Assembly: GCA_004431415.1 (NCBI GenBank)
Contig: QPMI01000451.1
Coordinates: forward strand, 1 to 64,000
Direction of reading: 5' to 3'
DNA from: Cyanophora paradoxa CCMP329
Taxonomy: Eukaryota; Plantae; Glaucophyta
Length of the DNA stretch: 64,000 nt
The position numbers were made by a program, and so were the translations under genes. Positions 17,182 to 43,024 of this stretch are shown here, piece by piece. The first letter of the stretch is position 1. Every line of letters begins with the position of its first letter. Under the pieces are notes generated by a model. It was given only the letters and a program-made list of their open reading frames with translations. It searched no databases and was not told the origin of the DNA.

Positions 17182-17415
17182 GGGATCGTCAGATCGAAAT
17201 TAGATTCAAAACTTGAAACGCCCTCAGGGCCTGAAATTAGATTTAAAACGCCCTGAAATCGAAATCGAAAATCGCCTTTCCTGTATATATATACTCCTCT
17301 CCACCCTCAACTGCCGCCCCTGAGGGATCGTCAGATCGAAATTAGATTCAAAACTTGAAACGCCCTCAGGGCCTGAAATTAGATTTAAAACGCCCTGAAA
17401 TCGAAATCGAAAATC
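17152..17415 (+). repeat. Tandem duplication (~120 bp) of the stop codon and 3' flank of the C12orf4-like gene
   Basis: 17152-17274 repeated at 17294-17415. Confidence 0.9.
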
Positions 17416-17718
17416 ATGGCATCATGATCATATGTATATATACTGCCCGAGTGGAGCCTCGGAGCCCGGCGGCCCTCGGAGGACATCAATCGATATCATG
17501 ATCATGTTGATGACACTGTGTGACATGTACTACCGTACGCGTAGTACTTCGGTACACGTTGACCAGTCCTCTCGGCGATCTTGCCGGCAAGGAACAGGAC
17601 CGCATCAACAGAACCCTCGCAGTAACATTTCGGCCGAAGCGGCCGCGGGCGTCGTAGGCCTATCTCAGAGTTTCCCCCCCGCCCTATCTCCCCCCTCCCT
17701 CCCCCTCTTGTCCCATGG

Positions 17719-18243
17719 GTGGCGCGTCAGGCTCTCGACTGCCGCCACTACGAGTACGCTGGTCTTGCGTTTCGACTCCCTCTGCCACGCGGTCTTGATG
17801 CTTATTTTGCGCAGGTTCCGGCAGCTCATGCAGCACGCCGTCCGGCGGCACCCCAAGGACGAGGACCCGCCGTGCACGCTCCAGCTCGTCTGCGAGGCCT
17901 GGACCTCGAAGACGTGCGGGATGTGCGGCAAGATCAACTACGGGCTCGGCTCGAAGAGGGTCTTCGAGTGCCGCCCCGGGTGCGGCTTCCGGGCGGACCG
18001 CGACGGCGGCGCCGCGCGGTGCGTGTTGTGTCTATACACGCCTATACACAATCGCTGCTCCCCCCGCCTAGTCCCGACACGGCCTATCCACGGCGTAATT
18101 TTCCGTCTAGGCCTAGGGCCGGCTCGCCCTCCCAGCGCCGCCCGATCGCAATCGTAATCGTACTGATCGCACAGACCTCTCGCAGGGGCATCCTGATTCG
18201 CTACGGCACGGGCGTGGACGCGAAGCGCCTGCTCAGCTCGTAG
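17719..18243 (+). mobile_element. Fanzor2/TnpB-like nuclease C-terminal remnant with two spliceosomal introns (17754-17814, 18019-18185)
   Basis: Spliced: VARQALDCRHYEFRQLMQH...VCEAWTSKTCGMCGKINYGLGSKRVFECRPGCGFRADRDGGAARGILIRYG...*. Has the zinc ribbon and the RuvC-III DRD motif. Confidence 0.85.
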
Positions 18244-24834: not shown

Positions 24835-27800
24835 CTACTTCACGAAGTCAGGGTTTTTCTTCAGGATGACAAAGCCCTCGAGCATCGTTGACAGAGGGAT
24901 ATCTGCAGGATCGACAGCTCAGTGTTGAGTGGCGATATCTGCATTTCGATGTACTTACACTCGTCGGTTGCCAGCTCTGCCCTGTCCCCTGCTCCAACAA
25001 GAACAGGGGTTGTATGCGTTTGGAATCCAGTGATAGTCTTCGGCCGGCCTGCCTGACCAACGGTGTCGACTGCTTGTCCCACGCGAACCTAGTATAAAGA
25101 TATCAGTGTTTTCCTGTCAAGACTGATTCGTCTAAGAGGGACACAGGCAATCGTACCTGAACTGGCAGAGGCTTCAAATCCGTGTCAACGGTTACAAGCA
25201 TTCGAGGGTATACAGCAGCTGAGATAAGGTACAGCAGGTAGTGCCTGCTGCCGAGAATAACTGCGCAAACCCGGATTTACAAACAAATAATGAAATTGAA
25301 AATGATGTTCTTACTGTTCTTGAAGTCCAAGCAAGAGTGCAGGACTGCAAAAAGAGACGCTGCTGCAGTGGAGGACAGCAAAGTCCTCTGGGCATGGTAA
25401 GGAGATATGGAGACGAGACCCTTGCCCATGTGGAGGAGCCCTTGAGCAATGCGAACAATGAACAATTGATTTGCATCTTTGGCGTAGTAAGCTGCCAACT
25501 GCCGCAGAAGCCCAGCACATCGTGCATTGTTGGTTCCAGCACCAATCAGGCCAAGTCCCAGAATGGCGCCTTGGGCAACGTCTGTGTCGAGGTCGTGCGA
25601 GAGCTTGCTGAGAGTGTCCATGGTTTGGATACGGGGATTTGATATGCTGAGGAGACCCAGCGCCAGCGGCACTGCTCTCCTCACGGTCTGCTCCCCATAC
25701 CTACATGAAAGACACGTGCAAAAGTCAGCTGATCTGGTCGCAGACGAATGTAAGCATTCACTCACTGCAAGAGGTGTTCCAACGACCTCATCGCCATTTC
25801 GCTGCCAAGCTCCTCTGCCATCGCTACGAACGCGATGCCCAGAACAGAGGCGGCCATGTGCATCCCAGCCTCCTCTGGATGCTCACCGCAGATGCTCAGG
25901 AACTTCTGAACCTGGAAGACACACTGTAAAGGAACTCTGCAACATTCAGAAATAGAACTGCTTGCCTTCAACACGTTTCCTGTGCCTGCATAAGCGCACG
26001 ACTCCACTGTGATGGCACAGTACTGTGCAATCTTGGGGTTCAACGCCTTGCAGGCCTCCAGGGTGACTTCAGCAGACTCACCCTTGCCTGTCATGCGATC
26101 AGTAGTGCGCTTCATACAAAACCATGTGGGCACGAACCCAAGAAGAGGAGGGCAAGGCCAACTGGAACTAGCCTCGCCATGGCGTCATCAAACTGAGCCT
26201 CCTCGCGCTCCATAAGCGCTTGCAGGATTGTCTCCGTAACATCCGAGTGTGCAGTTCCAACGAAGACCATCCCTATATTCTCGTTAGTGATTGATCTTTT
26301 CGAGAGGTGGCAAACGGACCGAGCGCCAGCGCAGCAATTGCGACTGTCTCGATCGAGTTCTTGGCATCAGCAAGTACAGGCGTCAACAGCTCCAATACTT
26401 CTTGCCGGGAGGTTCCAGCATACGCGAGACCAAGGCTGGAAGACCGATCAGCAGATGCAAACTGAAAAGATGGGCACACTGCGCACCCAAGAATAGCGCC
26501 GAAGCGGATTGAGGGTTTGTCACTTTCGACATGCTCTGTCAGTAGTGCCAGGGCGGGGTCGCAGTCATTCCGAACGCCTGTTGAGACAATGCCGACCGCC
26601 AAAAGAGCGCCAGCCTTCACATAGTCTTCATTCGAGTAAAGGTATTTGTCAATCTGTGTGAGGCCGCCATCCACGTCCCACATCAGAATCATGCCGAGGG
26701 AGGCGGCTGCTGACATCATGCCGTGCTCCTTGTTCTTGTAGAGCCATTTCGTGCCATCCTGGGTCATGAGCTTGTCCTGTCCATAACCCACATTCACAAA
26801 TGCGTTCACGAAGGTCGACGCCAGGTTCTGCCTGGCAGAATCCACATTCGTGGATACATTTTGCCCTGCACATTTTTCACAAATCCATTGAATGAAGTAA
26901 GGGAAACACAGCGTACGTGTTTCGGTTAAATGGGTCTTGTAGATATCTTCAGGTGTCTTGGCCTCGACGACATCGAGATCCCTTGCAAGGGCAAGATATG
27001 ATGCACTCAGCGAAGAATTGTTCATAATTTCCGTGAACGAATCGTCTCCGCATTCGATTCGAAGCCCCTTCCTTCCCAAGAGATACGCAAGCTGCTTCTT
27101 CACGTCCCTGAGGGTCGCAGGCAGCGAGTTAGACCATTGCGAAATGAACTCTACACGCTTACCGATCCTGGCAGCTTTCAAAAGTTTCCTTGACGAGGTT
27201 CATGTCCCCAAGCCGAACAGCAGTGTGAAGCGCATCTGGGTACTTGCGCAGCTTCGAGAATATTGAGTAGCAGATCTTGTACATGTTCGCGTCCTCCGGC
27301 TCTGCGGCATACGAGGCGCAGCTCATCAAGTACAAGGTAATCCGCCCGAAGTTGTTGTCGTCAACATGATCCAGAATTTTGTCCAGCATCTGCCCACGTG
27401 CATACAAATCGATTGAGGCGACGAAGAGCGCGCCCACGTTAGACATGTCGCACCTCAACTTCAAGCAACAGATCACACGCTTCCGGTTCTGCGTTGTGCT
27501 GCACGTGGAACGGCACTATCTCGTCGATAAGGCGAACAAGGTCCTCCGTCGACTTCTTCGCTTCGACACGAGCCGAGAACTCGCCCGCTACCTGACCAGC
27601 CAAACCGCTGCACGGCATGAATGCTCTCCTAGATCGCACAAACCGCACAGCATCTTGCGTACCGAACGTACTCGTGCCCCCATTCGCCTACGTTCGCCGT
27701 GGAGCCTTCCAACTTGAAGTTCAGCGCGTCGCGGATGCCATCTTGAGGCAAAGTTACTGCGAGCATGGATAGGAGATCCGCCAGGCGTTTCTGTGTTCTG

Positions 27801-28264
27801 TCAATAGACTTGCAGATGCGGGACAGCGTATGAGCGCGCACCCTCGTGTCAGACGGCGCGGACGCCGCGTAGAAAGTTTTGAGAGTTTCGTAGTGCGGGC
27901 GCAGAAACTTGAGAGGCCGCGGCACGGAGGTCATTGATGATGTCGCAGACTTGATCTCCTTGGCGACGGTCTCCAGCGCCAGGTTCGCAACATTCCGGTC
28001 CGCATCCTGAATGCGCTGCACTAGGAGCTCAATCTCCGCCTTCTTCTGCAAGTCCTCTTCCGACTGCAGCGCGGTGCGGTCAGAACGACCATTCCACGCT
28101 CCCCGGGGGGCATTTGCGAGAGCCAGCGGTGTACGTGCGCGTGCATTGCTAGTCGCATGCGGAGGAACAGCGCAGCACCGCGCACGTACCAATTCCTCCG
28201 GCTTCTTCTCCGGCTTCTTGACATCCTTCGTCTGCGACTTGTCCTCTTTCTCCGGGACTGCCAT
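24835..28264 (-). CDS. RPN1: 26S proteasome regulatory subunit RPN1/PSMD2, multi-exon
   Basis: [87 protein letters not shown]. Confidence 0.97.
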
Positions 28265-29707
28265 ATTTACAGAGAGCGCGCTTGCTAGAGCGCTAGCGTG
28301 CCACCCCGATGCGAACCGCTCTGTCAAGCAGACTCAAGCTGACGCCAGGGGTACGCTGCCACGGTGGTCAGCGAGTTCGCCTCATGATCAACCGAACCCG
28401 GCCGCTGTCGACGTCGACGTACGCGTACGCGTAGAGATAGACAATCCTCAAGATGAGCCGAGTCGGACCGCCGCTAGCGATATATCGAATGAAGCTACTA
28501 GTACTAGGCTACGTATACGTAAATATACGTCACGGCGTATACGTACTACTACTACGGTATACTTCAAGGCTTAATTAGCGCTTCGAATTCGCTAAGCGGG
28601 AAAAGATAATTTCGTAACGGATTGTAAATATAAGCAATTCTTCTTACGCGCGAAATGCTAATTTGAATTCGAAGACTCTGAGATTAAGTTTCCGTGCGTA
28701 AGCTACACTACAGCCGTAAACTCCGCGTTGCGTTTGTGATGCGGTATACGTAGCCCCGGGGGGCCTGCGCCCGAGCAGGCTCAGCTACAGCGGCTGCGGC
28801 GCTGGCCGCTGGGAGCTCCGGGGCTACGCGGTTTTCTTCCGAGGCTCAGGATCAGTGCGATTTCCCGTGCGTAAGCTACAAGTAAGCTACACGCAATTGC
28901 AAGCTCCGAGCTCCGAGGCTCGAGGCCAAGCTTCCTCGGGACCGACTTTGCCTCCAGGCCTAGGGCCGTTTCCCGCAGTCCGACGGTCGCCAGCTACGTA
29001 GTGAATATTAGCTAGCGCTGGGGGAAAAAACTATGATGGCCAAAGTATGCATATATGATGTGTTGTGTGGGTGCCGCTCACTCCGATATTCGTAGTGAAG
29101 CGGCTCCCATGGCCACCGACACTGGAAAGATAGGCCCTCCGGATCCTAATTATAAGCCCTTGAAGCTCGTAGCTTACGTATCGCGGGAGTTAATCCGGCC
29201 AAAGTCTTGTGGGGGCGGGGGTCGTCTTGGGGCCTGGGGCCTGAGATGTATTCAGCCTGCGGTGGGCGCCGGTGCTTGCACAAGCGTATACGTACACGAA
29301 GCCAGCACTCAGTGTGACTCAGAGGAGCAGAGCGTCGATATCGATATTGGGATCATTGGATGTATATATATATACCTCAGCAGACGGGAGCCCGGCGGCG
29401 CCAGCGCCGGCGCGGCCCGGCCCGGGATCGGATCCCTACTAGGCTAGTTCCGAAGTCCCTTATATAAGTGGGCTCTTGCCAAAGGTCGAGCTCTCGAGCT
29501 TGCCCTTTCGCTGTCAATGCATTGTTAACCCTCGGAGGTTGCATGAGTCACGCGTCACGGAGGTTTGGGTGTTATATTGCGATCAGGGACGCGCTGCACT
29601 AACAGGGGGGCTAGCACTAACTGGCGCGGGGAGTAACACGTCCGACGTACCCCTCGGGGCCTCCGGCCTCTAACTATGCTCAGGCTCTAACTGAATGCTG
29701 TACCCCC

Positions 29708-30430
29708 TCACTGGCCGAAGTGCGACGGTCCCCACTCGAGGTCGGGGTCGGGCCTTGGGGGCCTCCGGCGGGGTACGATGCTCCCGCTTGCCAGCTCCAT
29801 GTACTCCCCCACGGGGTTGTCTTCGTCTGCGAGGTCCTTATAGTTGCCCTTTACGAGATCCGCTGCCGCTTTGCGCCAGCGAACGGCCACGTTGTACGTG
29901 TTGTCGATGATGTTCTGCACCGTACCCTCCATGGGTATTAGGGATAGCCTATAGTCGAGGTTTCTCTTACGCAGGTTCAATTCCCTTTCGTAGTACTCCA
30001 CTGCGTCTGGGAGGGCCCTGAGCTCCACCGCGTGCTCGCCCGGGTCCGACGAGCTAATGAGCCCGGAGCGCTGCAGTGCGTTCACAGCCGCCCGCAACAC
30101 GATTTTGCCTACCCCCCGCATCGAATCCCTCTGCTCGGGCGTCCCGTATCCCCCCTGCGGCCCGTAATCGTTGTAGTAGCTTTCTATTTCGACGGTGGCT
30201 GGCTTATTGCCGACCTGAGGCTTGACAAAGCCGTACACCCATGCCATGGCGTCATTGTCCGCTGAGCGGGCTTTCTTGGAAGGGGGCGGCAGCACTTCGA
30301 TTTTGAACTCCCTGGTCCGTCGGTTGACGAGTGTTTTTAGATTGAGGGGGAGGCGCGTATCCCCGAATTTATCAGGAAAGAGGCGGTGTAGCTTAAACCA
30401 CGCTTCCTGATCACCGTAGGTGTACGACAT
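29708..30430 (-). CDS. GNAT-like acetyltransferase, intronless (240 aa)
   Basis: MRGVGKIVLRAAV (acetyl-CoA motif A) and VELRALPDAVEYYERELNL (motif B-like). Confidence 0.6.
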   Translation of the reverse strand: MSYTYGDQEAWFKLHRLFPDKFGDTRLPLNLKTLVNRRTREFKIEVLPPPSKKARSADNDAMAWVYGFVKPQVGNKPATVEIESYYNDYGPQGGYGTPEQRDSMRGVGKIVLRAAVNALQRSGLISSSDPGEHAVELRALPDAVEYYERELNLRKRNLDYRLSLIPMEGTVQNIIDNTYNVAVRWRKAAADLVKGNYKDLADEDNPVGEYMELASGSIVPRRRPPRPDPDLEWGPSHFGQ

Positions 30431-30467
30431 TTGCTCGCGGCTCGCTGAGAATTTATACCTGTACCCC

Positions 30468-31238
30468 CTACTCGCGGTCGGGGTACCTGTCGCCGGGCAT
30501 CAGCCTCGCGCGCTTGCGCAGCTCCGCCTCCCCGGGTAGCCAGTTCTTCGGGTCGTTGCTCCACTCCTCCCATTCGCGTATGTCCCGTCTGACGTCACGC
30601 GGGGCGGGGGCGTTTATCGGTGGGGCGGACGGGGCTGGCAGGGCCTGGCGCGGGGGGTTGAGGCCCCTGTTCCACGAGTACTCGGGGTACTCTTCCCATC
30701 CCAGGGGTACCAGATTCATCGGAATTGGCTCAACTTCGAATTGGGGCTTTTTGACGTGATAATCATAGTTTGTGACATACGCCGTCACAGCCGAGCGCAA
30801 GCGCGAGAGGTCGCGCAAATTTACGTCGTCCCATTGCGAGTCCCTTGCCTTCGCGTACCACTCGAGGATTTGCATGCGAATGTGGTCCGGGAGGGTCGAG
30901 AGTATGCTGAGCTTGGAGCCCAGGGCGAACCAGATGCGCTTGAACTCGTCGATAATCCTGCCCTCGTCGTGGCTCCGAAAGTAATGGGCACCGCCAGCGT
31001 TGTGATGCGAATCGAGCCACCCTGCCTGGGCCAGCTCTAGCACCGGCCAGGGTTGGCGCTGTCGATTCGGTCGCGAGGCCCGCTCAACCACCCAGCGTCT
31101 AAGGTCCTTGACCTGATCTATGAACTGTGCGCCGCCACTACCCTTGTCTGGTTGGTTCACTGTCGATTGTGCTTCGGGCCTTCGGGTCCTTCGCCTTTCG
31201 TCAAAACCGCACAACCGGCTTGGGCGTGTCTTATACAT
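30468..31238 (-). CDS. Hypothetical intronless protein (256 aa, Trp-rich)
   Basis: Clean ORF with protein-like composition, 37 bp from the next gene. Confidence 0.7.
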   Translation of the reverse strand: MYKTRPSRLCGFDERRRTRRPEAQSTVNQPDKGSGGAQFIDQVKDLRRWVVERASRPNRQRQPWPVLELAQAGWLDSHHNAGGAHYFRSHDEGRIIDEFKRIWFALGSKLSILSTLPDHIRMQILEWYAKARDSQWDDVNLRDLSRLRSAVTAYVTNYDYHVKKPQFEVEPIPMNLVPLGWEEYPEYSWNRGLNPPRQALPAPSAPPINAPAPRDVRRDIREWEEWSNDPKNWLPGEAELRKRARLMPGDRYPDRE

Positions 31239-31352
31239 ACTCTTCTTCTTCTTCTTCGAACTGTGCGATCACGTCCTTGGGCGCTTCCTCTGCATCCGAC
31301 ATTTGTAATTGCACACATCAAGAAATTCTAAACGCTACTGCGAGGCTAAGCT

Positions 31353-32042
31353 ATGCATACCGATACAGATTGCGAGACTTTGCAACAGGGGAGCGCGGCG
31401 TGGCACGCGGCGCGCCGTGAAAAACTAACTGCATCTAATTTTGCGGCTGCGTGCGGCATAAACCCCTGGAAATCCAGGGCCCGCCTGTGGGCGGAGCTAA
31501 GCGGGATAGCGGAGGAAAACAACTTTGACAACCCTGCCCTAACCTATGGGCATGATTATGAGCCCTTCGCGGTCTCTATCTACAAGGCACTGAACGATAA
31601 CGTTGACATTAAACATACTGGACTGCACGAACATAAAGAAATGCCGTTCCTCGCCGGTAGCCCCGACGGACTTATAGGAAATGATAGAATTTTAGAGGTG
31701 AAATGCCCGTACAAGGGCGAACTTTATGATAGAGTTCCTACTTATTACATGCCGCAGTTACAAGGACTTCTGGACATAACGGGCCGCGAGTGGGCCGAAC
31801 TTTTTTGCTTCACTCCTCTGCGCGTGCAAACGTGGTACGTCAGGCGCGACGAGAGGTACATCGAGCTCATGAGGAAGTGCTTACATCTATTTTGGATGCA
31901 CGTCAAGGAGGGCACGCCGCCCGAGCCCTACAGCGATCGAATGAAGTTAGAGAACCTCAGCGAGGAGCAGGCGGCGCTGCGCGAGTTTAAGTCGTACGCC
32001 CTCCTCTCAGAGTCTAGGCAGACTACTTCTGTCCCAGGCTAG
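31353..32042 (+). CDS. YqaJ/lambda-exonuclease-family viral recombinase
   Basis: QGSAAWHAARREKLTAS, GHDYE, LAGSPDGL, LEVKCPY, YMPQLQG motifs all intact. Confidence 0.95.
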   Translation: MHTDTDCETLQQGSAAWHAARREKLTASNFAAACGINPWKSRARLWAELSGIAEENNFDNPALTYGHDYEPFAVSIYKALNDNVDIKHTGLHEHKEMPFLAGSPDGLIGNDRILEVKCPYKGELYDRVPTYYMPQLQGLLDITGREWAELFCFTPLRVQTWYVRRDERYIELMRKCLHLFWMHVKEGTPPEPYSDRMKLENLSEEQAALREFKSYALLSESRQTTSVPG

Positions 32043-32551
32043 GTCTTTGGAATCTTAATATAAATTTTCCGGGACCCGGGACAGGCCTTGTCGGACATGG
32101 CAATGTCAGAACCTTCCCGATCATCTAGATCTATAATGATTCTAGGGAGGGTCCAGACACATCTCTTGTGCGGACCACTTCTGTCCCAGGTCTTTGGAAT
32201 CTTAATATAAATTTTCCAGGGACCCGGGACAGGCCTCGTCGAACAAACCTCTTCATGGGCCAAGATTTCGTGCATGCATCGGCCGCAGCTCATGCGAAAA
32301 ATCATGTCTGATCCGATCCTGATCATGACGTCCTGCAAATTGAAGAATCGTCTGACCGGGAGTGTCCCGGGTCCCTGGAAATTTTATATTAAGATTCCAG
32401 AGACCCGGGACAGATCTACCTAGAGGGAACATCCAAAATGCTGTACCCCTCCCACCCCGTGATCTTTCGAATTCAATCTGATGGGCCGACCTGAGTGACG
32501 GTGTCCTGGGTCCCCGGAAAGTTTATATTAAGATTCCAAGGACCTGGGACA
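32030..32551. repeat. Four 50-bp imperfect palindromes: 32030-32083 and 32182-32231 forward; 32363-32412 and 32502-32551 inverted
   Basis: Consensus TGTCCCAGGTCTTTGGAA-TCTTAATATAAATT-TTCCAGGGACCCGGGACA. Confidence 0.95.
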
Positions 32552-32617
32552 AGAGCAATGCATTTTCGCACGACGTTGACATAGCCTGATCACGAGAGAA
32601 AAATGTACCCCGATCTA

Positions 32618-35600
32618 TCAAATCCGCCGATGGAGCAGCGAGTAGCAGTCGCAGAACAGATCTTTCACCTCCAAGTAATCCGGCCCCACGCCAGCCCAGC
32701 GCTGCCTTGCTTGGCGCTCTGCAACATCTTCGAGAGTGTCTTCCTTGACCCACGTGATGCACTTGCGCTTGCGAGAGCCGGCGCCCTCCTGCCCTTCTCG
32801 GGTCCGTTTTTCCCGGACCGGGCCCGTCTCACCCCCATGTACTTTTCGAGCAGGTACTGAATCACCCGCCACGACTGCTGCGCAAGCTTGGCCTTCTCAT
32901 TGTCCGATGCATCGAGTTTAGGGGCCCGCTCGTCCAGACTCTGCAGCACCGCGTAAGCCTCCCGGCCCTCCGGTGATGCGAGCGCCGCGTAGGCTTCGTC
33001 CGACCAAAGCATACAGCTGTCGCCGGCCAGCTTCTCGTACCCCGGCCCAAAAGTCGCTTGAAAAGCTCCGCAACCTTCGAGACCCTGTGGTACTCAGTAG
33101 ACGAGGCGATCTCGGCCATGTCGCCGCCGCGCTTCAGCACAAGGATGATCCGCGACATCAGCGGGATCGAGTAGAATGACTTCCACAGCCAGGCCACGTC
33201 GCTCTCGGTCAGCGCGCTTGCGTCCTTGGCCAGGAACGCAGCGGTCGCTAGGCGCGCGAGTGCAGCAACCTTCTCCACGTCGACCTTAGCAAGCGAATCG
33301 CGCGAATGCCACCAGGAGTCCAGCAGCATGTACAGTTCGGTGATGTCCAGGGGCGGAGACTCGAGTACGTACTTGATCTCGCGCTGCCGCTGCTCCTTCT
33401 CCTCTTTCGGCCCCTTGTTTCCCTGATCCTCCGTGACCCGCACGTTCATCACGGCGCAGGTCGACAGCAGCCGCAGCCGCGCGGCCACGGCGAGGCGCCG
33501 CGTCGGCATGCCGGCCCGCCGACTCCCGTGATGGCTCGCCTTCAAGTCCAGATAGCGCTGCGTGTCTGCAGTGCTAGCTCTCTCATCATCGCTCTCACGC
33601 CAGTGCGCGGTCGCCTCGCCCACGCTGACGGAGGGCGCGGACGCGCGGCTCTTGCGCACGGCGACGAGCAGGTGCTCTCCGCCGGGCGGCTCGCCGCGCC
33701 TGCGCAGCTTTCTCACTCGGAACAGCAGCTGCACGATGTCGTCGGCCTCTAGCTGCGCGGGTTCGGCCTGGAAAACGCCGTAGATCTTGTCAAAGTGCGC
33801 TTCCGGAAAGTCCACGCCCGCCCCGAGCGCGGACGTCGCGATGAGCACGTCGCAGGCCTTGTACGCGCCCTCCTCCGAGACGTCGATCGACACTACGCGG
33901 ACCGGGCCCTCGTTCGTGAAGCGCACGCTCTTCTCCTTCGCCTGCCCAACGATGAGCCCAATTGTGAACGGTGCGCCGCTGCCGTCCTCGGGCCCTGCCT
34001 CGAGCTGAGTCACGTACTGAGCGCCGCCCAGGCTGAGCTGCTCCAGCGCCTGCTTCGAAATCTTGTCTGCTAGCTCATTCGCCTTGGCCGGCGTCTCCGC
34101 GATGATCATGGCCCGCGAGCGCCCAGGTCGGCACTGCACCATGATGTCCTTCTCGACGTGCGCCGGGCTGTCTGACACGCGCATCTTCCAGTCGCAGGTC
34201 CGGCGCGAGTTGTGCAGGAGCCCAAGGCGCGCCCCGCGCTCCAGCGCGGACTCCGCGAGGTACGCGAGATCGACCGGCCGGACGAAGCCGTCCATCGCCA
34301 CGATGCGCGAGGCCTTCATCACGTTTCGCATTAGCTGCACGCAGCGCGCGTTTCGGGCATTGACCGCACGCCCATGTGCAGGCCGGCGGGTTCGAGGGTG
34401 CCGCTCGAAGTGAGGTGCTTCGTGAGGGAGGAGAGCTCGTCCAGCACGATCATCAGCGGCGCAGTCGACCAGCCCGCCCAGTCCTCAAGTACCTTGTGCA
34501 GCGAGTCGATCGTGATGACGACGCACCTGCACTTCGGATGGCGGTAGCCCCACTTGCCGTGCGTCCCATTTGAGCTCTCCGGCGGCTTCTGAATGTCCAT
34601 GTACAGCACGGCGTCCTCAGGCAGGCCCACGTCATCCAGGCGGCGCTTCAGGTCGCGGGAGAAGGCGCGGCGGCAGGTCAAGAGGATCACGCGCCAGCCC
34701 CCTCGAGGGCTGGCTTCAGGTACGTCTCGATGAGGGCCTGCGTCTTCCCCGTGTTGAGGCCCGAGCAGATGACGTCGACCTGGGCGGCCCCGGCTCCAGC
34801 GGACCGAACGTGGAGGTGAGCAGCCCTGGATCGCGCGTCAGGTAGTCCGTATCCACGACCTTCACGCAGTGCGGTGTCAGGCCCGTCGATTCGAGTGCGA
34901 TCAGGAGCGACGGGAGGGCCACGTCGAGCGCCACGGGCTGGGACGGGTCCGTCACGTAAGACGCCGCCGTCTCGCTGCAGCTCCCGTCTCCAGCTCCCCC
35001 TCCTGCTCCACCTCGACACCGTGCGCCCGAATCGCGATTCTGAGGGCCGGCGATCCTGGCTGATCGCTCATCTTCAGGGTGATTGTTCCGTCGGGCTCGA
35101 CTGCAATGTCTTGAACGCGGCGGGGGTCATTCAGGCTGATCTCAGTGCGCAACGCCGCCCCGCCCGCCAGATCTCGTCCCTCACCAGCTTGTTCTCGCGC
35201 AGGAGGCTCAGGAACCGATCGAAGTCCGGGAGCGGAGCCTGGGCGTCGCCCGTCAAGCTCAGCGGGGGTGGGGCGGCTCCTTGCGGGGGAGGAGCTCCTG
35301 GCGCCGCAGTCCCGAGCAAGCCCCCGAGCTGCGGCGCCCTGCGGCCCTGCGCCACCCCCTGCGCCGATCCCTGCGTCGGCCCCTGCAGGACGTAGGCTCC
35401 TGTGTCGTCCCCCCCGAGCTCCAGGCCGCTAGATGTCCCCAGCAGCCAGGTCGCAAAGGCGCAGGCCTCCGGGCTCTGCAGGACGTAGGCAGCCTTGAGC
35501 CCGTTGTGCGATGTTCGAGAGAAAGTGAGGCCTCCGAAGCTCTCCGCGCATGCACGGGCGGCCGCGGTGCTCGTCTCGTCTTCCGCGTCGGAGAAGTGCT

Positions 35601-35780
35601 TGGACATGATGTGCGGCGGGTGAAAGATACAGAAGACCATTCCGAGATCAGCGCTGCAGACCTTCTGGACGCAGACGAGGGGAAGCGAGTGAAGAAAAGC
35701 TCTTCTTGCGGGCTCAGGTCCACGGGAGTTACCCCCGGCAGACGGGAGAGTAGACTGTCGGAGCACGTCGAGGTGGCCAT
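32618..35780 (-). pseudogene. UL9-like replication origin-binding SF2 helicase, split by about six or more frameshifts
   Basis: GLNTGKT, LTCRRAFSRDL, ITIDSLHKV, IVLDELSS, RIVAMDG, ATSALGAGVDF..HFDKIY and VQLLFRVRKL match UL9-family motifs in order. Confidence 0.85.
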
Positions 35781-35902
35781 GCTCTCGGGTTAGGCCTGCT
35801 GTTTCGTGTTAGGCTTGGAAAATTTTCAGTGGCACCGGCCGGAAACTGCACACCTTGAGAACTCGAACTCGAACTCCAAGGCTCGGTGAATTGGCGCTAG
35901 CT

Positions 35903-36205
35903 GCACTGTCGACGTCGACTGTCGGACCGTCGACGTCGGACTTCGGATGTCTCGTCTTCTGTCCCAGGTCTTTGGAATCTTAATATAAATTTTCCAGGGA
36001 CCCGGGACACTCTGGTCTGACGACGCTGCAGCTCGAAGCGCTCAACTGGGTCCGCACTGTCGACGTCGACTGTCGGACCGTCGACGTCGGACTTCGGATG
36101 TCTCGTCTTCTGTCCCAGGTCTTTGGAATCTTAATATAAATTTTCCAGGGACCCGGGACACTCTGGTCTGACGACGCTGCAGCTCGAAGCGCTCAACTGG
36201 GTCCG
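35903..36205. repeat. Tandem ~151-bp duplication, each unit carrying the 50-bp palindrome (35960-36009, 36111-36160)
   Basis: Direct sequence identity between the two units and with the 32.0-32.5 kb palindromes. Confidence 0.95.
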
Positions 36206-37219
36206 GTTGACGGCACACAGGCTATCAGGGTGCCAGGCCTAGCCTAGTACGTAGGCTGACCGTCGGACCAGTACTGGCGGTTCAGTTGAAGCCGAGTACT
36301 ACTAGCGCTAGCTATAGCGCCAGCGCTAGCTGTAGGCTAGTACTAGTACTAGATCGAGAGACGGTACGGCGCGCCACAGCTAGCGAGCTCGCGCTCGCTC
36401 GCCTTTGCGCTGAAGCTTAGAAAATTTTGGGCTCACGCGGTCGTTCCACGTGTTCTGTCCGGACAACCTGTACCCAGCTGTCCAGCCAAGTAGTCAGAGC
36501 TCTCCAATCCTGCGGCGCTTGGGCCCCGTGCTTCTCAGAGCACTTGATGGAGGCCAGCGTGTGCGTTCTGTGCTCTCGGGGAGCCGCCGCTTCGTTCCCG
36601 CCGATGCAGAAGTGCGTCTCGGTCGGCGACCCCTCTCTCCGCGGAGCGGCTAGCTGGAGAGCTCTCCCGATGCCGCGCGCTTACACTGCGGTGCGCAGGC
36701 TCGGTTGCTGTGGCCGGCAACCTTCGAGAGCTCGATGGCACCCAAGCTGAACCACCTCGCCGCATCGCGGAGGTGCTGGCTCCCTCTTTCGCAGCTCTTT
36801 CGCTTACACTTACACTTTCGCTAGACCGTGCCGCACAGCCTCGCGCTCATTTCCCCACGTTCGCAGAACTTCGGCGTCGGCGCAGGTTCCGGGATCTGCG
36901 ACCGCGCCTCCCGCAGCTCGAGCCGGCGTCTGCGGCGACCCGCGCATGCATCTAGATCCTATTCTGAAACCCGTGCGTCGATCCGGGTCCCGGGCTCGCG
37001 TTCCTGCGCCTCCCGGACCCTCACACTGCTCCTGTTTGCATCCTAGCTAAGACCTTCCTCGCCCGCAGCCGGTCTCGTCCTCGGCACATTGTGAGCGGCA
37101 TCAGTGGAGCTGGAGTTCCGCACTTTATGCAGGCCCGTGCGCCCTTTCCCGCCCCGCCCCGCCCAGCCCCGCCCCGCCTCGCGTGCGCTATAGCTAGCTA
37201 ACCCTGTCGCGCGCGCCGC

Positions 37220-38149
37220 AGAGGGTTCGTAGCCGGAGGGCTCGCAGGCCGCGGCCCGGACACCTCCGCCGCCGTCGGCGCCGACATCGAGAACGGCCGG
37301 CTGGACGAGACCCTCGCCGGCTTCGGCTCCTGGTGCCGCCCCTACTCCTACAAGCTCGGCGGCGTCTGGCAGACCTACATCCGCGGCATCGTCCCAAGGC
37401 CCCGCTCTCCCTCGGCGAGAGCCAGCCGGCGCTGGAGGCGATCGCGATCCCCGTCGCCCAGTTCAAGGACCCGGCGCCCGACGTCGGGCCCTTCCTCGTC
37501 AAGCCCCACACCAAGGGCAAGGGCAAGCGCACCCGCAACTCGGCGCCGGCCTTCCTCCCGCCCCAGCCCCCGCCACGGCCCCCAGCAGCGCCCCGGCCAG
37601 CAGCGCATCGACGAGATGCTGCCGCGCCAGGTCCGGCCCCGCGTACCCCCCGCCTTCCCTGTACCTCCCTCCCCTCGCCCCGTTCCTGATCCAAGGGCAG
37701 GGTACCTCGGCCTCCCCCGCGAGCGCCGACGGCCCCAGCCCCGTCCCCGGCCCCGGCCACGTCCTCTCCGCGATCCAGGGCTTCGGGCCCAGCAGGAGGC
37801 CGAGCGGCAGGCGCTGGCGGCGCGCCAGGCGCGCGAGGCGGAGGCGCGGCGCCAGGGCCGCCGGGCCCAGCGCCTCCAGCGCACCCTCGCCTTCCGCGCC
37901 GAGCTGGAGGCGGGCTTCCGCGCGGATCAGATCGCCGGCGCGGAGGCCTCGGAGCGCTGGCGGGCGTTCGAGGCGGAGACGGCGGGGCTGGCGAAGGGCC
38001 TCGGCTACAGCTACCGGCGCGTGCCCGTGCCCAAGGACTACGCGTCGGCCGCGGCGCTGGAGGCCTCGCGGGCGGAGATCGACGCGGCGGAGGACGTGGT
38101 GGCGGAGACGGAGGCCCACGCCGAGACCTTCCGCCACCTCCACCACTGA
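37220..38149 (+). CDS. Hypothetical Pro-rich/coiled-coil protein, frameshifted or spliced; start uncertain
   Basis: Coding-like segments in successive frames ending ...AETFRHLHH*. Confidence 0.5.
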   Translation, partial: RGFVAGGLAGRGPDTSAAVGADIENGRLDETLAGFGSWCRPYSYKLGGVWQTYIRGIVPRPRSPSARASRRWRRSRSPSPSSRTRRPTSGPSSSSPTPRARASAPATRRRPSSRPSPRHGPQQRPGQQRIDEMLPRQVRPRVPPAFPVPPSPRPVPDPRAGYLGLPRERRRPQPRPRPRPRPLRDPGLRAQQEAERQALAARQAREAEARRQGRRAQRLQRTLAFRAELEAGFRADQIAGAEASERWRAFEAETAGLAKGLGYSYRRVPVPKDYASAAALEASRAEIDAAEDVVAETEAHAETFRHLHH

Positions 38150-38198
38150 GCTCTCCGAGGCGGTATTTTTTCTCAACCCCTTCCAATTCGGTCCCGCG

Positions 38199-38390
38199 AT
38201 GGCCTTCGCTGACAGCTACCCACAGCACTACACCCTTGGAGCCCTCGCCGCGACCCTCACCTGGCTCCTCGGCGGCACCCCCACCGCCTCGGCCGTCATA
38301 GGCGTGGGGTTCGGGTACGCCGCCAAGAGCCTCTACGCCCCCGGCTCCGTCTCGATGGCGACGGCCGGCATGCGCCCCGCCGGGCGCTAA
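38199..38390 (+). CDS. Small hydrophobic protein (63 aa)
   Basis: Two Gly/Ala-rich hydrophobic stretches; coding-like codon usage. Confidence 0.55.
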   Translation: MAFADSYPQHYTLGALAATLTWLLGGTPTASAVIGVGFGYAAKSLYAPGSVSMATAGMRPAGR

Positions 38391-38500
38391 GTTAACTCTC
38401 CCTTTTCAAATGTTCTATTCCCCCCTTTCCCTTTTCCAAGTTGCTCAAGTCCGTCGACGTTCCCTTTTAAATTTTCTTCATTCACGTTACACGTCTGAAC

Positions 38501-38986
38501 ATGCCGAACGCCGTAGAGAAGCTGTTGTGTACGGTGTTCAAATCGGACTCGCGCTGCAGCAAGATCGGCGAGGCTGCCAAGGGCGGGGGCGGGGCGAAGG
38601 TCGAGGGGCCTAAGCTAAGGGGCGCGGACCCGGCGCCGCCGGCGCTGAAGTCGATTAAGGCCGCGGGCAAGGGCCGCGGCGTCGGGCCCCTGCCCCTCGT
38701 GGCGATCGCCCCCGGCCAGAGGGAGGCGGCGCACGCGGCGACGGCGGCGCTGGCCTCGCAGCAGCAGAGGGAGGGGGCGCCGCGCCTGAGCGCCGGCATC
38801 TGGTCGCAGCCTGCGCCCGCGCGCGAGTACGGCGTCAGCGCCTTCTTCGACGGCGCGAACGAGCTGAGCCGCCAGGAGATCTGGGCCTGGGAGGCGCGGC
38901 GCGCGGTCGACGGGCACCTGCCGCTGCTTGTGGCGCTCGGCGGCTCGCTCCTGATGGTCTGGTACCTGCGCGGCCTCGCCATTTAG
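38501..38986 (+). CDS. Hypothetical protein with C-terminal membrane anchor (161 aa)
   Basis: Ends LPLLVALGGSLLMVWYLRGLAI. Confidence 0.6.
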   Translation: MPNAVEKLLCTVFKSDSRCSKIGEAAKGGGGAKVEGPKLRGADPAPPALKSIKAAGKGRGVGPLPLVAIAPGQREAAHAATAALASQQQREGAPRLSAGIWSQPAPAREYGVSAFFDGANELSRQEIWAWEARRAVDGHLPLLVALGGSLLMVWYLRGLAI

Positions 38987-39012
38987 ATAGATTTTCGAAG
39001 CGCTAGCTAAAG

Positions 39013-39288
39013 ATGGGCTGGGTGGACGCCGTGCTCACCAAGGTCTTCGGCCCGAAGAGCGCGCAGCCGCCGCCGAGCTTCAACCTGGCCGCGGCGATCA
39101 GCACGACGATCGAGCGCAAGAACAACGAGCTCATCCTAAAGAACGACGGCAAGCTTCCCTGGGCCGACGTGGCCGCGGGCGCGCTCGGCAGCACGCTGAC
39201 GGGAATCGATCGGACGGGCGCCGCGGGCGTGAAGGTCGGGCAGGCGTGCAGATTTCCGTACCCCTCTACATGTCTGCCCGGTGGTTAG
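39013..39288 (+). CDS. Hypothetical protein (91 aa, MG start)
   Basis: 26 bp after the previous stop; coding-like codon usage. Confidence 0.5.
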   Translation: MGWVDAVLTKVFGPKSAQPPPSFNLAAAISTTIERKNNELILKNDGKLPWADVAAGALGSTLTGIDRTGAAGVKVGQACRFPYPSTCLPGG

Positions 39289-39353
39289 GGACTTGGCGCG
39301 GCAAACTCTCAGATCCAGAGAAAGTCTGGGCCCAGACCCTGAGTCTAACTCTT

Positions 39354-39395
39354 CCCAAGTCCCAAGTCCCAAGTCCCAAGTCCCAAGTCCCAAGT
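39354..39395. repeat. (CCCAAGT)6 telomere-like array
   Basis: Perfect heptamer array flanked by an 11-bp inverted repeat (39290-39300 / 39404-39414). Confidence 0.95.
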
Positions 39396-39472
39396 CCCAG
39401 GATCGCGCCAAGTCATAACTGAATAGTCGGCCAATTTTTACAAGTATGTACAATGGAATGACGCAATACTAT

Positions 39473-40504
39473 TTACAGCATCTCAAAGTCAGAGTCATCG
39501 TCATCGGAAACCAACTCAATGAGGCCCTCGGGCGCCGACTTAAGGGGAATGCGGGGAAGGGCCTGCGCTGCCTGCACCAAGTCCTGCCGCTCGCGCTCGC
39601 GCTGCGCCGCCAAGGCCGCTGCCGCCTCTGCCTCGCGCTGCTGCTGAGCCTCGATGCGCGCCTTGAGCTCGGCTGCCTCCTTCTGCTTGCGCTCGGCGAT
39701 CCGCGCCTTGTTGATCTGGTACTGGACAAGGCGCTCGTGGCGCCGCTTGCGCTCCAACTCCTTGCGGAGCTCGTTGCAGAGGACGCGCTTCTCAATGGTC
39801 TTGACGTGCTGAGTCAGGCGCTCGCTGTAGTGTGACGTCACACGAGAACGGGCAATGCCAGCGCCGAGCTTCAAGTCCTTGGCGTTTTCCTTGGCGGGGT
39901 CCTTGACGCGCTCGGAGTTGTCGGTGAATGACGTAGTCTCCATGAACTTCTTCTTGACGATTGACTTGGTCTTGATAATGCGGCGCTTGCGAGTCGGGTT
40001 TTCGTTGTCGCCTTCAGAGTCAGAAGACGACTCAGAGTCGTATGGAATCGGCACGTCAAAGTCGATGAAGTCGTTGATGTCAGACTCGGCGTCAGAGGCC
40101 TCGGACTTGGCGTCATCGGCGGGCTGAGGGGCGGGCTCGGCGACGGGCTGAGGGGCAGGCTCGGGGGCAGATGACGACGATGACGGAGGGGGGTAATTCG
40201 TGAAGGCTTGAGGGGGGTTGGCCCAGGCGAGTGTCTCGGCGGCAGACTCGGCTTGAAGCTGGAGCATTTCGGGAGTTGGGACGAATGACGGCGCGGGCTT
40301 GGGCTCGGGATTCTTGACGTCATCCTTGCGGAAAAGGCCAAGGTAGCAGACGCCGTTCAAGCCGTGGTAGGAGCCGTAGTTGTACCCCAGTGCCTTCGCG
40401 CGACGCTCCATGGCAGGGGTAGGCCAAAGTCCGGACTTGTGCAGATTGCGAGCCTTGGCAAAGTCCTTGGCAAGCTCAGAGGGAATCTCAGAGACAGGCG
40501 ACAT
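39473..40504 (-). CDS. Hypothetical acidic/coiled-coil protein (~343 aa)
   Basis: Long clean ORF. The ATG at 40504 follows a polypyrimidine tract and CAG acceptor, so the ORF-track extension to 40636 is probably UTR/intron. Confidence 0.7.
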   Translation of the reverse strand: MSPVSEIPSELAKDFAKARNLHKSGLWPTPAMERRAKALGYNYGSYHGLNGVCYLGLFRKDDVKNPEPKPAPSFVPTPEMLQLQAESAAETLAWANPPQAFTNYPPPSSSSSAPEPAPQPVAEPAPQPADDAKSEASDAESDINDFIDFDVPIPYDSESSSDSEGDNENPTRKRRIIKTKSIVKKKFMETTSFTDNSERVKDPAKENAKDLKLGAGIARSRVTSHYSERLTQHVKTIEKRVLCNELRKELERKRRHERLVQYQINKARIAERKQKEAAELKARIEAQQQREAEAAAALAAQRERERQDLVQAAQALPRIPLKSAPEGLIELVSDDDDSDFEML

Positions 40505-40950
40505 CTGCGCAAAGGGAAAAGAGATCAGCAAAGGCAAAACGTGAGGTGACTGAGAGAGCGGACTTGTGAAAATTCGGAGAGGCAGAGTTTGCTTGGGCTG
40601 AGAGAAGGCGGCGAACCCGTTGTAAGAGTGAGCCAAAATGGCGGCGGACCGCGGTTTTGTGGGCGAATTTTTTCCTGGGCTAGTTTGCAGCAGAAACGTT
40701 GCGAACTGGCCTGAAAAAAGCCAAATTTGGCCTTTTCTTACGTTTCTCCCCCCTTCCTTCGCTGCAAACTGGACCTAAAAAAATGTTGGGCCGAAGGAAA
40801 TCTCACGGAAAACGTCCCTTCTCCCCCCTGTTTTGCTGCAAACTGGACCGCAAAAAAGTTGGACCGAAGCCCCCCTACCCCGCTGAGCCGGCCTGACGGA
40901 AATCGCCCGAGTGCGTCCGCCGAAGGTCGAGTCTCGGGGTTGGGTGTACC

Positions 40951-41370
40951 CTACATCCCGGGGCTGTACCCCTCCCTCTCGATGAGCCCTACCCCGGTGC
41001 GAAGGGCTGTCCGCTCGTCCCGTGCCTCCCTGCGATGTCTCATGCGCCGTCCCCGTCGAACAATAGCCCTGTCTTCATGTGGTACGTGTCGATGATTGTT
41101 AGGGTTGTCGTAGCCTGGCCCCACCAGCCTCACGAAATTTTCGCGTATGGCCTCGGGGAGACTTTGGAAACGGTTCGTCGCGTGGAACTCAATCCATTCA
41201 TTGAATCGACGCGGATATTGACGGACGATTTCGAGGACGCCCTGTGTGTTGGGCACTGGTCTTATTCCGGGGATGTCATGTCCTGTGATGTGCCAACGCC
41301 AGAACTCGCGCAACCTCTCGAATGCCATATTCAACTCAAAGGGGAAATCGTAATAGGGCTCGTCTGCCAT
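40951..41370 (-). CDS. Hypothetical protein (~139 aa, MADEPYYDFPF...)
   Basis: Protein-like intronless ORF downstream of the heptamer array. Confidence 0.6.
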   Translation of the reverse strand: MADEPYYDFPFELNMAFERLREFWRWHITGHDIPGIRPVPNTQGVLEIVRQYPRRFNEWIEFHATNRFQSLPEAIRENFVRLVGPGYDNPNNHRHVPHEDRAIVRRGRRMRHRREARDERTALRTGVGLIEREGYSPGM

Positions 41371-41428
41371 TTTTCTCCCCTTCCGAAAATTTCCCCGCTT
41401 TTGAGTCCAGACTCTGACTCCGACTCTT

Positions 41429-41477
41429 CCCAAGTCCCAAGTCCCAAGTCCCAAGTCCCAAGTCCCAAGTCCCAAGT
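41429..41477. repeat. (CCCAAGT)7 telomere-like array
   Basis: Perfect array sharing a ~22-bp upstream flank with the 39354 array. Confidence 0.95.
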
Positions 41478-41908
41478 CGCATTTTTCTCCCATTTTGACT
41501 CGAGATTTTACCCAAGTCCAAATCCGGCCCCGGGATTCGAACCCTCGTTTTGGGTCGATTTCACGCGTGAAAAACGCACTTTTCGGCCTTTTCCGATTTT
41601 TCCTTTCTCGCGATCGCAGAAATGCCCCCGATCTCGAAATCGCGATCGAAAAGGGTCGCGATCGGGAGAAAATCGCGATCGCCAGGGTCGCGATCGGCTC
41701 GTGATCGTCGCGATCGCCAGCCTCGGAAGGGGTACCCCCACAGCTGTTGCGGCGGTTATAAGAACCTCCGCAATCCAAGCGTCACTTCCGAGTCTCGAGC
41801 TCTCGGAGTTGACTTTTCGCGTTTGGCCCATTGATGGTCCTCCTATATATTTAAAGCTTTCGAATAGGGGTACAAGTTGTCCAGTAGGGTACAAGTTGAC
41901 CACTGACG

Positions 41909-43024
41909 ATGCGGTCCGCCGGCGCGGCGCTCGCGCTGCTGGCGCTTGTGTTTTCGCACGTAGCGATTTCCACCGTCGCCGCCGGTTCGATCCCTATCCG
42001 TCTAGCATCATAGCATGGGGCTTCTATGGGCGCCTCCGGTTCGAACTCTTACCTTCTAGCTGAGGGGCCAGACGAGAAAAGAGGGCTGCGTTCGTGCCTA
42101 GAACGCTCAACGAATCGCCTGTGATTATGGATGGTTGCGTCCTGAGCTGTACTAACACCCCTCATGATCATGCAGCTGCGAAGAAACCCACCAAAGCCGC
42201 GGCGCCGAAGAACGAGACCAAGCCGACTGCGACTCCAACACCGAGCCCCTCGCCCGTGCCTGCCAGTTCGGAGGACGAAAAAGAGGAGCAGGCGGCCGCG
42301 GAGGAGGAAGCCGCAGCCAAGGAAGAGGGCTCAGAAGAGGAGGCCGCGACTAAGGAGGAGGGCTCCGAAAAGGCAGACGACAAGAAACCTGCAGAGGGCG
42401 CTGAAAAGAAGGAGGAGACCGCAAAGCCCGCCGACAAGGAGGCGGAGGACAAAAAGCCCGCTGAGGGCTCCAAGGTGCGCTTCCCTAATGTATACAGCAG
42501 CTGGTTGTAATACGAATGCGCGCCTCAGGAGGAAGCTCCCAAGGCTGAGGAGAAGAAAGAAGAGGCGAAGCCTGCAGAGGGTTCCGAGAAGAAGGAGGAA
42601 GAAAAGAAGAAAGGTCCCCGCCCCGTACCCTTTTTGTCCGCACCGTACCCCCCTTCGACCGTCGTGGGCCTGCAGAGGGCGAGGAGAAGCCGAAGGAGGA
42701 TAAGAAGCAGGAGGAGGCTAAGCCAGCTGAGGCCCCTGAAAAGAAGGAGAGTGAAGAAAAGAAGCCAGCGGATGAGAAGAAAGAGGGGGATGAGGAGAAG
42801 AAGAGTGATGAGAAGAAGGGCGAGAAAGGTAAGACATGCAGTGTTCCAGGCCAGCGTTTCTATTTCGATTTGAATTAGGACCGGCTGCAGAGAGCGAAAC
42901 CAAAGGCGAGAAGGAGGGGGGGCCAACTCCGTCACCTTCTCCGCTCCCGGCCGTCATTGAGAACATTACACCTGGAATCGGCTCGACTGTGGGAGGGCAA
43001 AAAATCACTGTGTATGGGGTGTGC

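Follow-up and report, generated by a model that had tools for sequence, protein, structure and literature searches.

We analyzed a stretch of 64,000 nucleotides from Cyanophora paradoxa CCMP329 (positions 1–64,000 of contig QPMI01000451.1, assembly GCA_004431415.1; hereafter, the window), in which an island of about 12.4 kb separates two host genes. An earlier note, made from the letters alone, had described this island as virus- or plasmid-like and capsid-less, with about ten compact, mostly intronless open reading frames (ORFs), and had taken it for either a small new element family or a fragment of a larger endogenous virus. We count ten genes in it (ORF240, ORF256, a YqaJ nuclease, a UL9-like helicase, a gene at ~36.5–38.15 kb, ORF63, ORF161, a cut ORF205, ORF343, and ORF139), with the hexamer TATATA at both ends. 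In window coordinates, the features are:

29,461–29,466: left TATATA direct repeat, where the element DNA begins (contig end at 29,490 in both DNA runs; motif positions).
29,708–30,430, minus strand: ORF240, weakly predicted GNAT-like acetyltransferase (Atlas rows 7 and 28 with PF00583; Foldseek).
30,468–31,238, minus strand: ORF256, an orphan with no Pfam, PHROG, NCBIfam, or Atlas match.
31,353–32,042, plus strand: nuclease of the YqaJ / lambda-exonuclease family (Pfam PF09588, E = 2.6e-28; TIGR03033 over its cut-off).
32,031–32,551: four 50-bp imperfect palindromes, two forward and then two reversed, a candidate origin (repeat search, pattern count).
32,618–35,780, minus strand: UL9-like superfamily 2 (SF2) helicase of ~1,000 codons in at least six pieces, start codon uncertain (natural relatives, Pfam, Foldseek).
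35,903–36,204: exact 151-bp tandem duplication with palindromes five and six (at 35,956 and 36,107), upstream of the helicase.
36,500–38,149, plus strand: orphan Pro/Arg-rich gene with a coiled-coil-like end, start uncertain (three-frame view; no family match).
38,199–38,390, plus strand: ORF63, a small hydrophobic protein (KD19 1.27).
38,501–38,986, plus strand: ORF161, with a predicted C-terminal membrane anchor (KD19 1.71; exact in EukProt, in a cluster of 10).
39,013–39,246, plus strand: first 78 codons of a 205-residue protein (ORF205), cut at the internal junction (sister models are longer).
39,246/39,247: internal junction between the left and right arms, the putative deletion point (loose ends in runs X19 and X9).
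39,327–41,474: two-gene cassette bounded by two direct repeats of 73 bp (92% alike, at a spacing of 2,075 bp), which terminate in heptamer arrays.
39,473–40,504, minus strand: ORF343, acidic/basic and coiled-coil-like with a variable N-terminus (large Cyanophora-only family).
40,661–40,865: group of three to four short repeats, some direct and some inverted, upstream of ORF343.
40,951–41,370, minus strand: ORF139, an orphan (no Pfam match; no homologue search made).
41,844–41,849: right TATATA direct repeat, 60 bp ahead of the likely host start codon (motif position).

The boundary between host and island was placed at ~29,461 by 31-letter words, from which point rightward the DNA appears to be repeated. 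Illumina contigs from two DNA runs (X1 and X9) bridge this junction: the single-copy contig at 29,020–29,490 has 0 differences to the window in either run and stops where the depth jumps, which answers, for this end, the concern raised with the original description that the assembly might be chimeric. The interval between the TATATA copies at 29,461 and 41,844 contains no third copy, and the left one is likely a target duplication or a recombination core. The right end is placed provisionally, by the motif and the host start 60 bp on. The pair can alternatively be read as a 5-bp duplication beside element ends of the form AG...CT, which are Polinton-like ends. The left flank is RPN1 on the minus strand (Pfam E = 4e-36), and the right flank is a host gene on the plus strand, beginning at 41,909 with what looks by eye like a signal peptide and giving a weak TIG match (Pfam E = 0.079); of the two flanking genes first proposed, RPN1 and TIG/PSI, the former is firm and the latter weak. 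GC and CpG content show no contrast between island and flanks. The island is confirmed as real, and its DNA as repeated.

Comparing read depth with the flanks, as the earlier note had proposed, shows how far this DNA is repeated. Fourteen of 24 sequencing runs contain at least half of the words of 25,500–35,400, and read contigs were compared with the window over 26,000–39,300. Single-copy flank contigs have a depth of 123–137 in X1 and 36–50 in X9. Contigs nearly identical to the window reach 5.6–6.8x (X1) and 3.6–5.7x (X9) that depth, and a diverged contig type reaches 39–44x (X1) and 28–30x (X9). These ratios come from single contigs and are rough, and summed depth is not copy number; with that proviso, they point to roughly 6 near-identical and 30–40 diverged copies. 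The resulting ~35–50 copies of the left arm are of the same order as the 58 accessions of ORF343. An exact look-up matched 3 of the 10 island proteins (the blank for ORF139 is void, as the query was without its first residue); ORF161 and ORF343 have exact counterparts in EukProt, and every named member of their clusters is a Cyanophora paradoxa gene model. The evidence supports the island as one copy of a multi-copy element family, neither a set of host genes nor a chimera at its left end.

Several side observations concern other copies. Both DNA runs share joints at 31,252, 31,258, and 35,353, at a depth near or under that of single-copy DNA; these joints, the one from 35,353 to 37,738 among them, suggest that further copies elsewhere in the genome are deleted or rearranged. 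The sister gene model P0084 fuses the start of ORF205 with a diverged-type helicase on the same strand, implying that a neighbouring copy has been rearranged or inverted. Two YqaJ models of 122 residues lie two accessions apart, one of them three from an ORF343, possibly reflecting tandem or end-to-end copies.

The copy in the window is demonstrably broken mid-gene at 39,246/39,247. A contig of X19 runs past 39,246 into the missing coding sequence of ORF205, which is whole in the sister models P0082, P0083, and P0096 (127 further residues), and a contig of X9 arrives at 39,247 from different sequence. The right arm beyond the break carries a member of the ORF343 family, which comprises 27 clusters, all in EukProt, with 58 accessions used here. 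The family is built of mosaic blocks: among near column pairs, 5 of 252 are incompatible, and among far pairs, 19 of 243, as counted on 21 of the 27 rows. The heptamer arrays of the 73-bp repeats read like a repeat on the minus strand that we take to be of the telomere type. Recombination between these repeats would loop out ORF343 and ORF139. Likenesses seen by eye, of ORF139 to ORF256 and of ORF343 to the 37.6-kb ORF, were dropped for want of BLASTP support.

Whether the two arms belong together can be gauged from the spacing of their gene models along the accession numbers. Of 22 left-arm loci, 8 have an ORF343 at a distance of 28–42 accessions, or 6 after pairs known to lie on different contigs are removed, versus 1.3 expected (P = 0.0013 for this band, or P = 0.029 once every shuffle is allowed its own best band; 17 of the 58 ORF343 numbers are interpolated). 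This spacing is suggestive of linkage but short of proof. Taken with the loose ends and the paired hexamers, one long element, its middle deleted here, is the simplest account, and it is on account of the 28–42-accession pairs that we demoted the view of the right 2.6 kb as a separate family. Judged from the accession intervals, some 30 further gene models appear to have occupied the deleted middle and may be present in sister copies; at the density of the arms (~1.2 kb per gene), the full element would then measure 45–60 kb.

The most distinctive gene of the left arm is the helicase. Set against its natural relatives, it is one 3-kb gene whose frame switches near 34,780, 34,700, 34,355, 33,060, and 32,780. 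Among the pieces listed, the Illumina contigs show 2 gaps and 0 substitutions relative to the window over 32,202–33,679, and 8 gaps and 0 substitutions over 34,477–35,932; because the differences are gaps without substitutions, the breaks are likely long-read indels in the assembly, with private mutation a less likely cause. On the window's own pieces, Walker A, the DE box, and motifs V–VI are found, and the Herpes_ori_bp match is weak (E = 0.0014). Five relatives were found among 1.84 billion representatives, and two of them (P0153 and P0154) exceed the curated Herpes_ori_bp cut-off of 20 bits with 29.7 and 22.5 bits, which together with the SF2 motifs places the gene in the UL9-like family, as first proposed. 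The Cyanophora sister helicase has its best NCBIfam match in the CyRepA1 plasmid initiator (E = 3e-9; 36 bits versus a cut-off of 200), and a structural model of P0154 (pLDDT 44) has the herpes simplex virus 1 (HSV-1) origin-binding protein as its top match in the PDB (Foldseek). No AEP primase family matched residues 1–300 of P0154, a part modelled at pLDDT below 50. Pattern scans found no relative of the helicase in IMG/VR viral contigs or in metagenome contigs, tblastn of P0154 found no match among 72,556 plasmids or in phages, and sequence searches of the PDB gave nothing useful. A helix-turn-helix (HTH) match (E = 0.01) on an off-frame piece within the gene was rejected as a shadow.

Six 50-bp palindromes flank the helicase, four below and two above, each laid out as a GC-rich arm, an AT-rich core, and a GC-rich arm. 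Five match a common pattern exactly, all within the island, versus 0.00 expected; the sixth carries a small insertion, and scans with the palindrome-core pattern found no match. The origin oriS of herpes simplex virus likewise consists of inverted boxes round an AT-rich spacer and is bound and destabilised by UL9 dimers, according to the portion of PMC12543377 available. In UL9-like helicases, it is the C-terminal domain that recognises such boxes in a sequence-specific manner. By analogy, the island helicase may bind the palindromes.

The nuclease next to them belongs to the YqaJ family, as the earlier note had it, with PF09588 and TIGR03033 both exceeding their cut-offs. Its nearest cluster holds 7 sequences (13 accessions) of Cyanophora paradoxa. 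In a tree of 76 rows, built by a quick method and excluding the 122-residue P0072, two environmental proteins group with the 7 Cyanophora rows in a single branch of support 98, separate from the labelled plant, animal, and alphaproteobacterial rows. The two environmental proteins (P0002 and P0003; 65% and 50% identical, on contigs of <2 kb) suggest family relatives outside this strain. YqaJ pattern scans returned distant relatives only (27–44% identity), and none of the other island genes was present at 169 such loci.

The remaining left-arm genes bear out the first description in part. The GNAT-like reading of ORF240 holds up on weak evidence: its model has pLDDT 47, and the best Foldseek match has E = 0.03 with ranks 1–5 all GNATs. 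The true start of ORF256 may lie further in, because the high-depth sister type is without 31,122–31,257. The genes are compact, but the one at 36.5–38.15 kb departs from the mostly intronless picture, with five intron-like stretches seen by eye; it shows gaps relative to contigs at 37,392–37,784, its 5' end is probably spliced, and its frame is probably shifted in the window. The small membrane proteins that had been proposed correspond to the hydrophobic stretches of ORF161 and ORF63; the latter is the N-terminus in the sister gene models P0087, P0094, and P0095, and pattern scans with ORF63 and ORF161 found no match. This cluster of small hydrophobic and basic proteins may represent a virion module, which it resembles. 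Far to the left, at 17,700–18,030 on the plus strand, the window also holds a C-terminal TnpB/Fanzor zinc-ribbon piece (Pfam Cas12f1-like_TNB, E = 9.6e-9), adjoined by an exact 142-bp tandem duplication at 17,151–17,415.

A further lead concerns RNA. Two runs, X15 and X19, were taken as RNA runs by guess. Seven of the 15 joints listed (of 54) are skips of 48–61 bases with plus-strand GT..AG ends across the minus-strand helicase, one listed joint has CT..AC ends across the plus-strand ORF161/ORF205, and none of these spliced joints occurs in the DNA runs. Introns of host type would lie opposite element genes at window 33,668–35,203 and 38,963–39,037, and intron-bearing contigs reach a depth of 1,329 versus 182 for RPN1. 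As a lead, the joints can be read as spliced antisense transcripts, the contigs themselves giving neither strand nor level. Donor–acceptor pairs in the helicase number 9 in antisense (P = 0.023) and 1 in sense (P = 0.093; mean 4.1), and the gene may have been shaped to escape nuclear host splicing. A plus-strand gene over the helicase found no support, with 2–7 stops per frame after splicing, a test that the indels weaken.

Searching all 123 island frames of at least 60 residues against Pfam, which is weak on capsids of polinton-like viruses (PLVs), we found no capsid, packaging ATPase, polymerase, pPolB, integrase, or giant-virus core gene in the 12.4 kb; the only matches were YqaJ, Herpes_ori_bp, and the off-frame HTH. 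The absences reported at first sight are reproduced, for this copy. Because the copy is internally deleted, "capsid-less" is shown for it alone. We hold it somewhat probable that the island is an internally deleted copy of a previously undescribed, nucleus-replicating endogenous virus of ~45–60 kb, whose lost middle probably held the capsid genes. Of the two options originally offered, origin from a larger endogenous virus is the better fit, provided that the island is seen as what deletion left of the two ends of a repeated mid-size element and not as a decayed giant-virus piece; the small new family survives in that the family is multi-copy, but a small capsid-less 12-kb unit is not supported, since the copy is cut mid-gene. 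In the mechanism we propose, the helicase would bind both palindrome arms and melt the AT-rich core, in the manner of herpesvirus UL9 at oriS. Host polymerases would copy the element DNA, a proposal made because no polymerase or primase is recognisable in the island. YqaJ would resect DNA ends to feed recombination-linked replication, and this would account for the mosaic copies as well. The element would be inserted at TATA-like promoter sites, with duplication of 5–6 bp, by an integrase encoded either in the missing middle or by a full-length sister, and the island copy would be a non-autonomous passenger whose DNA could still be replicated.

Several results weigh against this deletion model. 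The ends carry no terminal inverted repeat (TIR), the 100-bp ends scoring no better than 113 of 1,000 shuffles, and TATATA is frequent in host intergenic DNA, such that the right copy could be chance. Of the 6 spaced arm pairs, 2 are known to share a contig and 4 are without contig names, one of these resting on an interpolated number; the uniform null of the test ignores the clustering of repeats on small contigs; and 16 of the 22 left-arm loci have no pair at 28–42, while same-contig pairs also occur 3 and 65 apart. The accessions are unbalanced (58 for ORF343, 13 for YqaJ), and no capsid gene was found to be linked to the island family. As for the herpesvirus likeness, HSV-1 UL9 leads a flavivirus helicase narrowly (E = 1.8e-5 versus 2.6e-5) on a poor model, and a viral structure library returned mixed SF2 matches, with herpes origin-binding proteins at ranks 9, 16, and 43.

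Some of these points suit a composite origin, in which an element with YqaJ and the UL9-like helicase was cut at 39,246 and a separate 2.6-kb element of ORF343 and ORF139 landed in it, its original right end being removed. The accession imbalance, the direct repeats that flank the right part, and the scarcity of close neighbours (an ORF343 lies no more than 10 accessions from 1 YqaJ accession out of 13, versus 0.62 expected) speak for such an origin. We nevertheless regard it as unlikely: arm pairs are in excess at 28–42 accessions, the same hexamer stands at both outer ends, the right part has neither transposase nor inverted ends, and the within-10 test is weak, linking even neighbouring left-arm genes in just 0–1 of 4–8 cases. 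Rather unlikely, in our judgement, is that the island is a truly capsid-less, plasmid-like nuclear replicon, perhaps episomal, with an initiator of the UL9/CyRepA type, palindromic origins, and integration at TATA. That none of the 123 frames matched a capsid, ATPase, or polymerase would fit, as would the cyanobacterial plasmid initiator as best NCBIfam match, and the single contigs at ~40x next to 13 YqaJ models leave room for extrachromosomal copies. But absence from a copy demonstrably cut tells little, Pfam may miss Cyanophora capsids that are recognised at the level of HHpred (PMC10120064, in the part available), the CyRepA1 score falls far short of its cut-off, and the small hydrophobic and basic proteins resemble a virion module.

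An assembly error that fused two copies of the repeat at 39,246 or close by, making a 12.4-kb unit absent from the cell, would account for the many indels of the window within the repeat (those over 34,477–35,932 among them) and for the internal junction being bridged by none of the contigs listed; with matching end hexamers and divergent flanking host genes that fit one insertion in one promoter region, we consider it very unlikely. That a giant endogenous virus, of the Nucleocytoviricota or a mirusvirus, left the island as a decayed fragment seems to us less probable still. Genes for YqaJ and UL9-like proteins do occur in such viruses (bioRxiv 2026.08.29.747986, bioRxiv 2024.02.29.582850), and giant-virus insertions are reported in Cyanophora paradoxa (PMC12344493), each source being available in part; against this stand the dozens of copies, the sharpness of the left end, a young subfamily of near-identical members, the intact look of the frames in Illumina data, the lack of any giant-virus core gene, and the lack of a helicase relative in the IMG/VR pattern scans. 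The island also measures 12.4 kb between host genes, whereas giant endogenous viral elements span hundreds of kb and carry core polymerase and capsid genes. A bolder proposition, which we rate as doubtful, is a new class of glaucophyte nuclear replicon whose whole replication kit would be a UL9-type helicase, oriS-like palindromes, and a lambda-type exonuclease. Such a class would have no inverted ends, target TATA boxes, persist as dozens of near-identical copies (some perhaps episomal), possess no capsid or an unknown virion of small membrane proteins, and be held in check by plentiful spliced antisense RNA across the gene of its initiator.

Should the internally deleted virus be the correct account, an alga amenable to culture, at the base of the plant lineage, would carry a mid-size DNA virus, as yet undescribed, in dozens of young copies, and this virus would initiate its replication as herpesviruses do. 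It would offer a testable non-herpes pair of UL9 and origin, bear on the origin of UL9/oriS, and might identify the owner of some of the capsid genes already reported from this host. More generally, islands that look capsid-less can be deletion derivatives.

Those capsid genes come from Bellas et al. (PMC10120064, seen in part), who list 366 capsid hits in the Cyanophora paradoxa assembly, in two clusters of 272 and 94; HHpred places six examples closest to ascovirus, iridovirus, and Pyramimonas virus capsids. Cyanophora PLVs are also mentioned in the available part of PMC12220804. The accessible text of PMC6704402 gives 11.5% unknown repeats and does not contain the words "virus" or "viral". 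In the literature covered, which leaves out most subscription papers, we found no virus-like element with this replication module. Like the island family, PLVs and virophages are integrated, multi-copy DNA viruses; they measure 15–30 kb and carry TIRs, pPolB or a D5/SF1 helicase, and a tyrosine recombinase or rve integrase (PMC10120064, PMC12220804, both in part). The island instead has a UL9-like helicase and YqaJ, and membership in the PLVs fails on the inverted ends; neither a tyrosine recombinase nor an rve integrase was found in this copy, which is without the putative middle. Tetraselmis PLVs keep structural and replication genes on separate arms (bioRxiv 2025.10.09.676808, available portion).

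The mriyaviruses (Yaraviridae and "Gamadviridae") are nucleus-replicating giant-virus relatives of 35–45 kb without a DNA polymerase (bioRxiv 2024.02.29.582850, here and below as far as the text was available). A subset has a UL9-like SF2 helicase with an intact AEP primase, which is not recognisable in the island, and mriyaviruses have HUH, VLTF2/3, RuvC, major capsid protein, and ATPase genes, none of which is seen in this copy; the strings "integrat" and "endogen" have 0 occurrences in the available text. The "Ariadnavirales", likewise dependent on the nucleus (bioRxiv 2026.08.29.747986, partial text), share YqaJ, the lack of a DNA polymerase, and an association with protist genomes, and SmDNAV also has a UL9-like helicase. 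They differ in carrying an intact AEP, TFIIB, VLTF2/3, RuvC, and PCNA, of which the island copy has none, and glaucophytes are unmentioned in that partial text. The cyanobacterial plasmid initiators of the CyRepA1 family (NF042913) resemble the island helicase and act as the sole initiator of their replicon; they have a primase domain, and the island helicase scores far below the family cut-off (PMC9978351, in part). With the alphaherpesviruses, the island shares the helicase family and inverted boxes round an AT-rich spacer, as described for UL9 and oriS in the accessible portion of PMC12543377; unlike them, it has no other herpesvirus gene and sets six palindromes beside its helicase gene.

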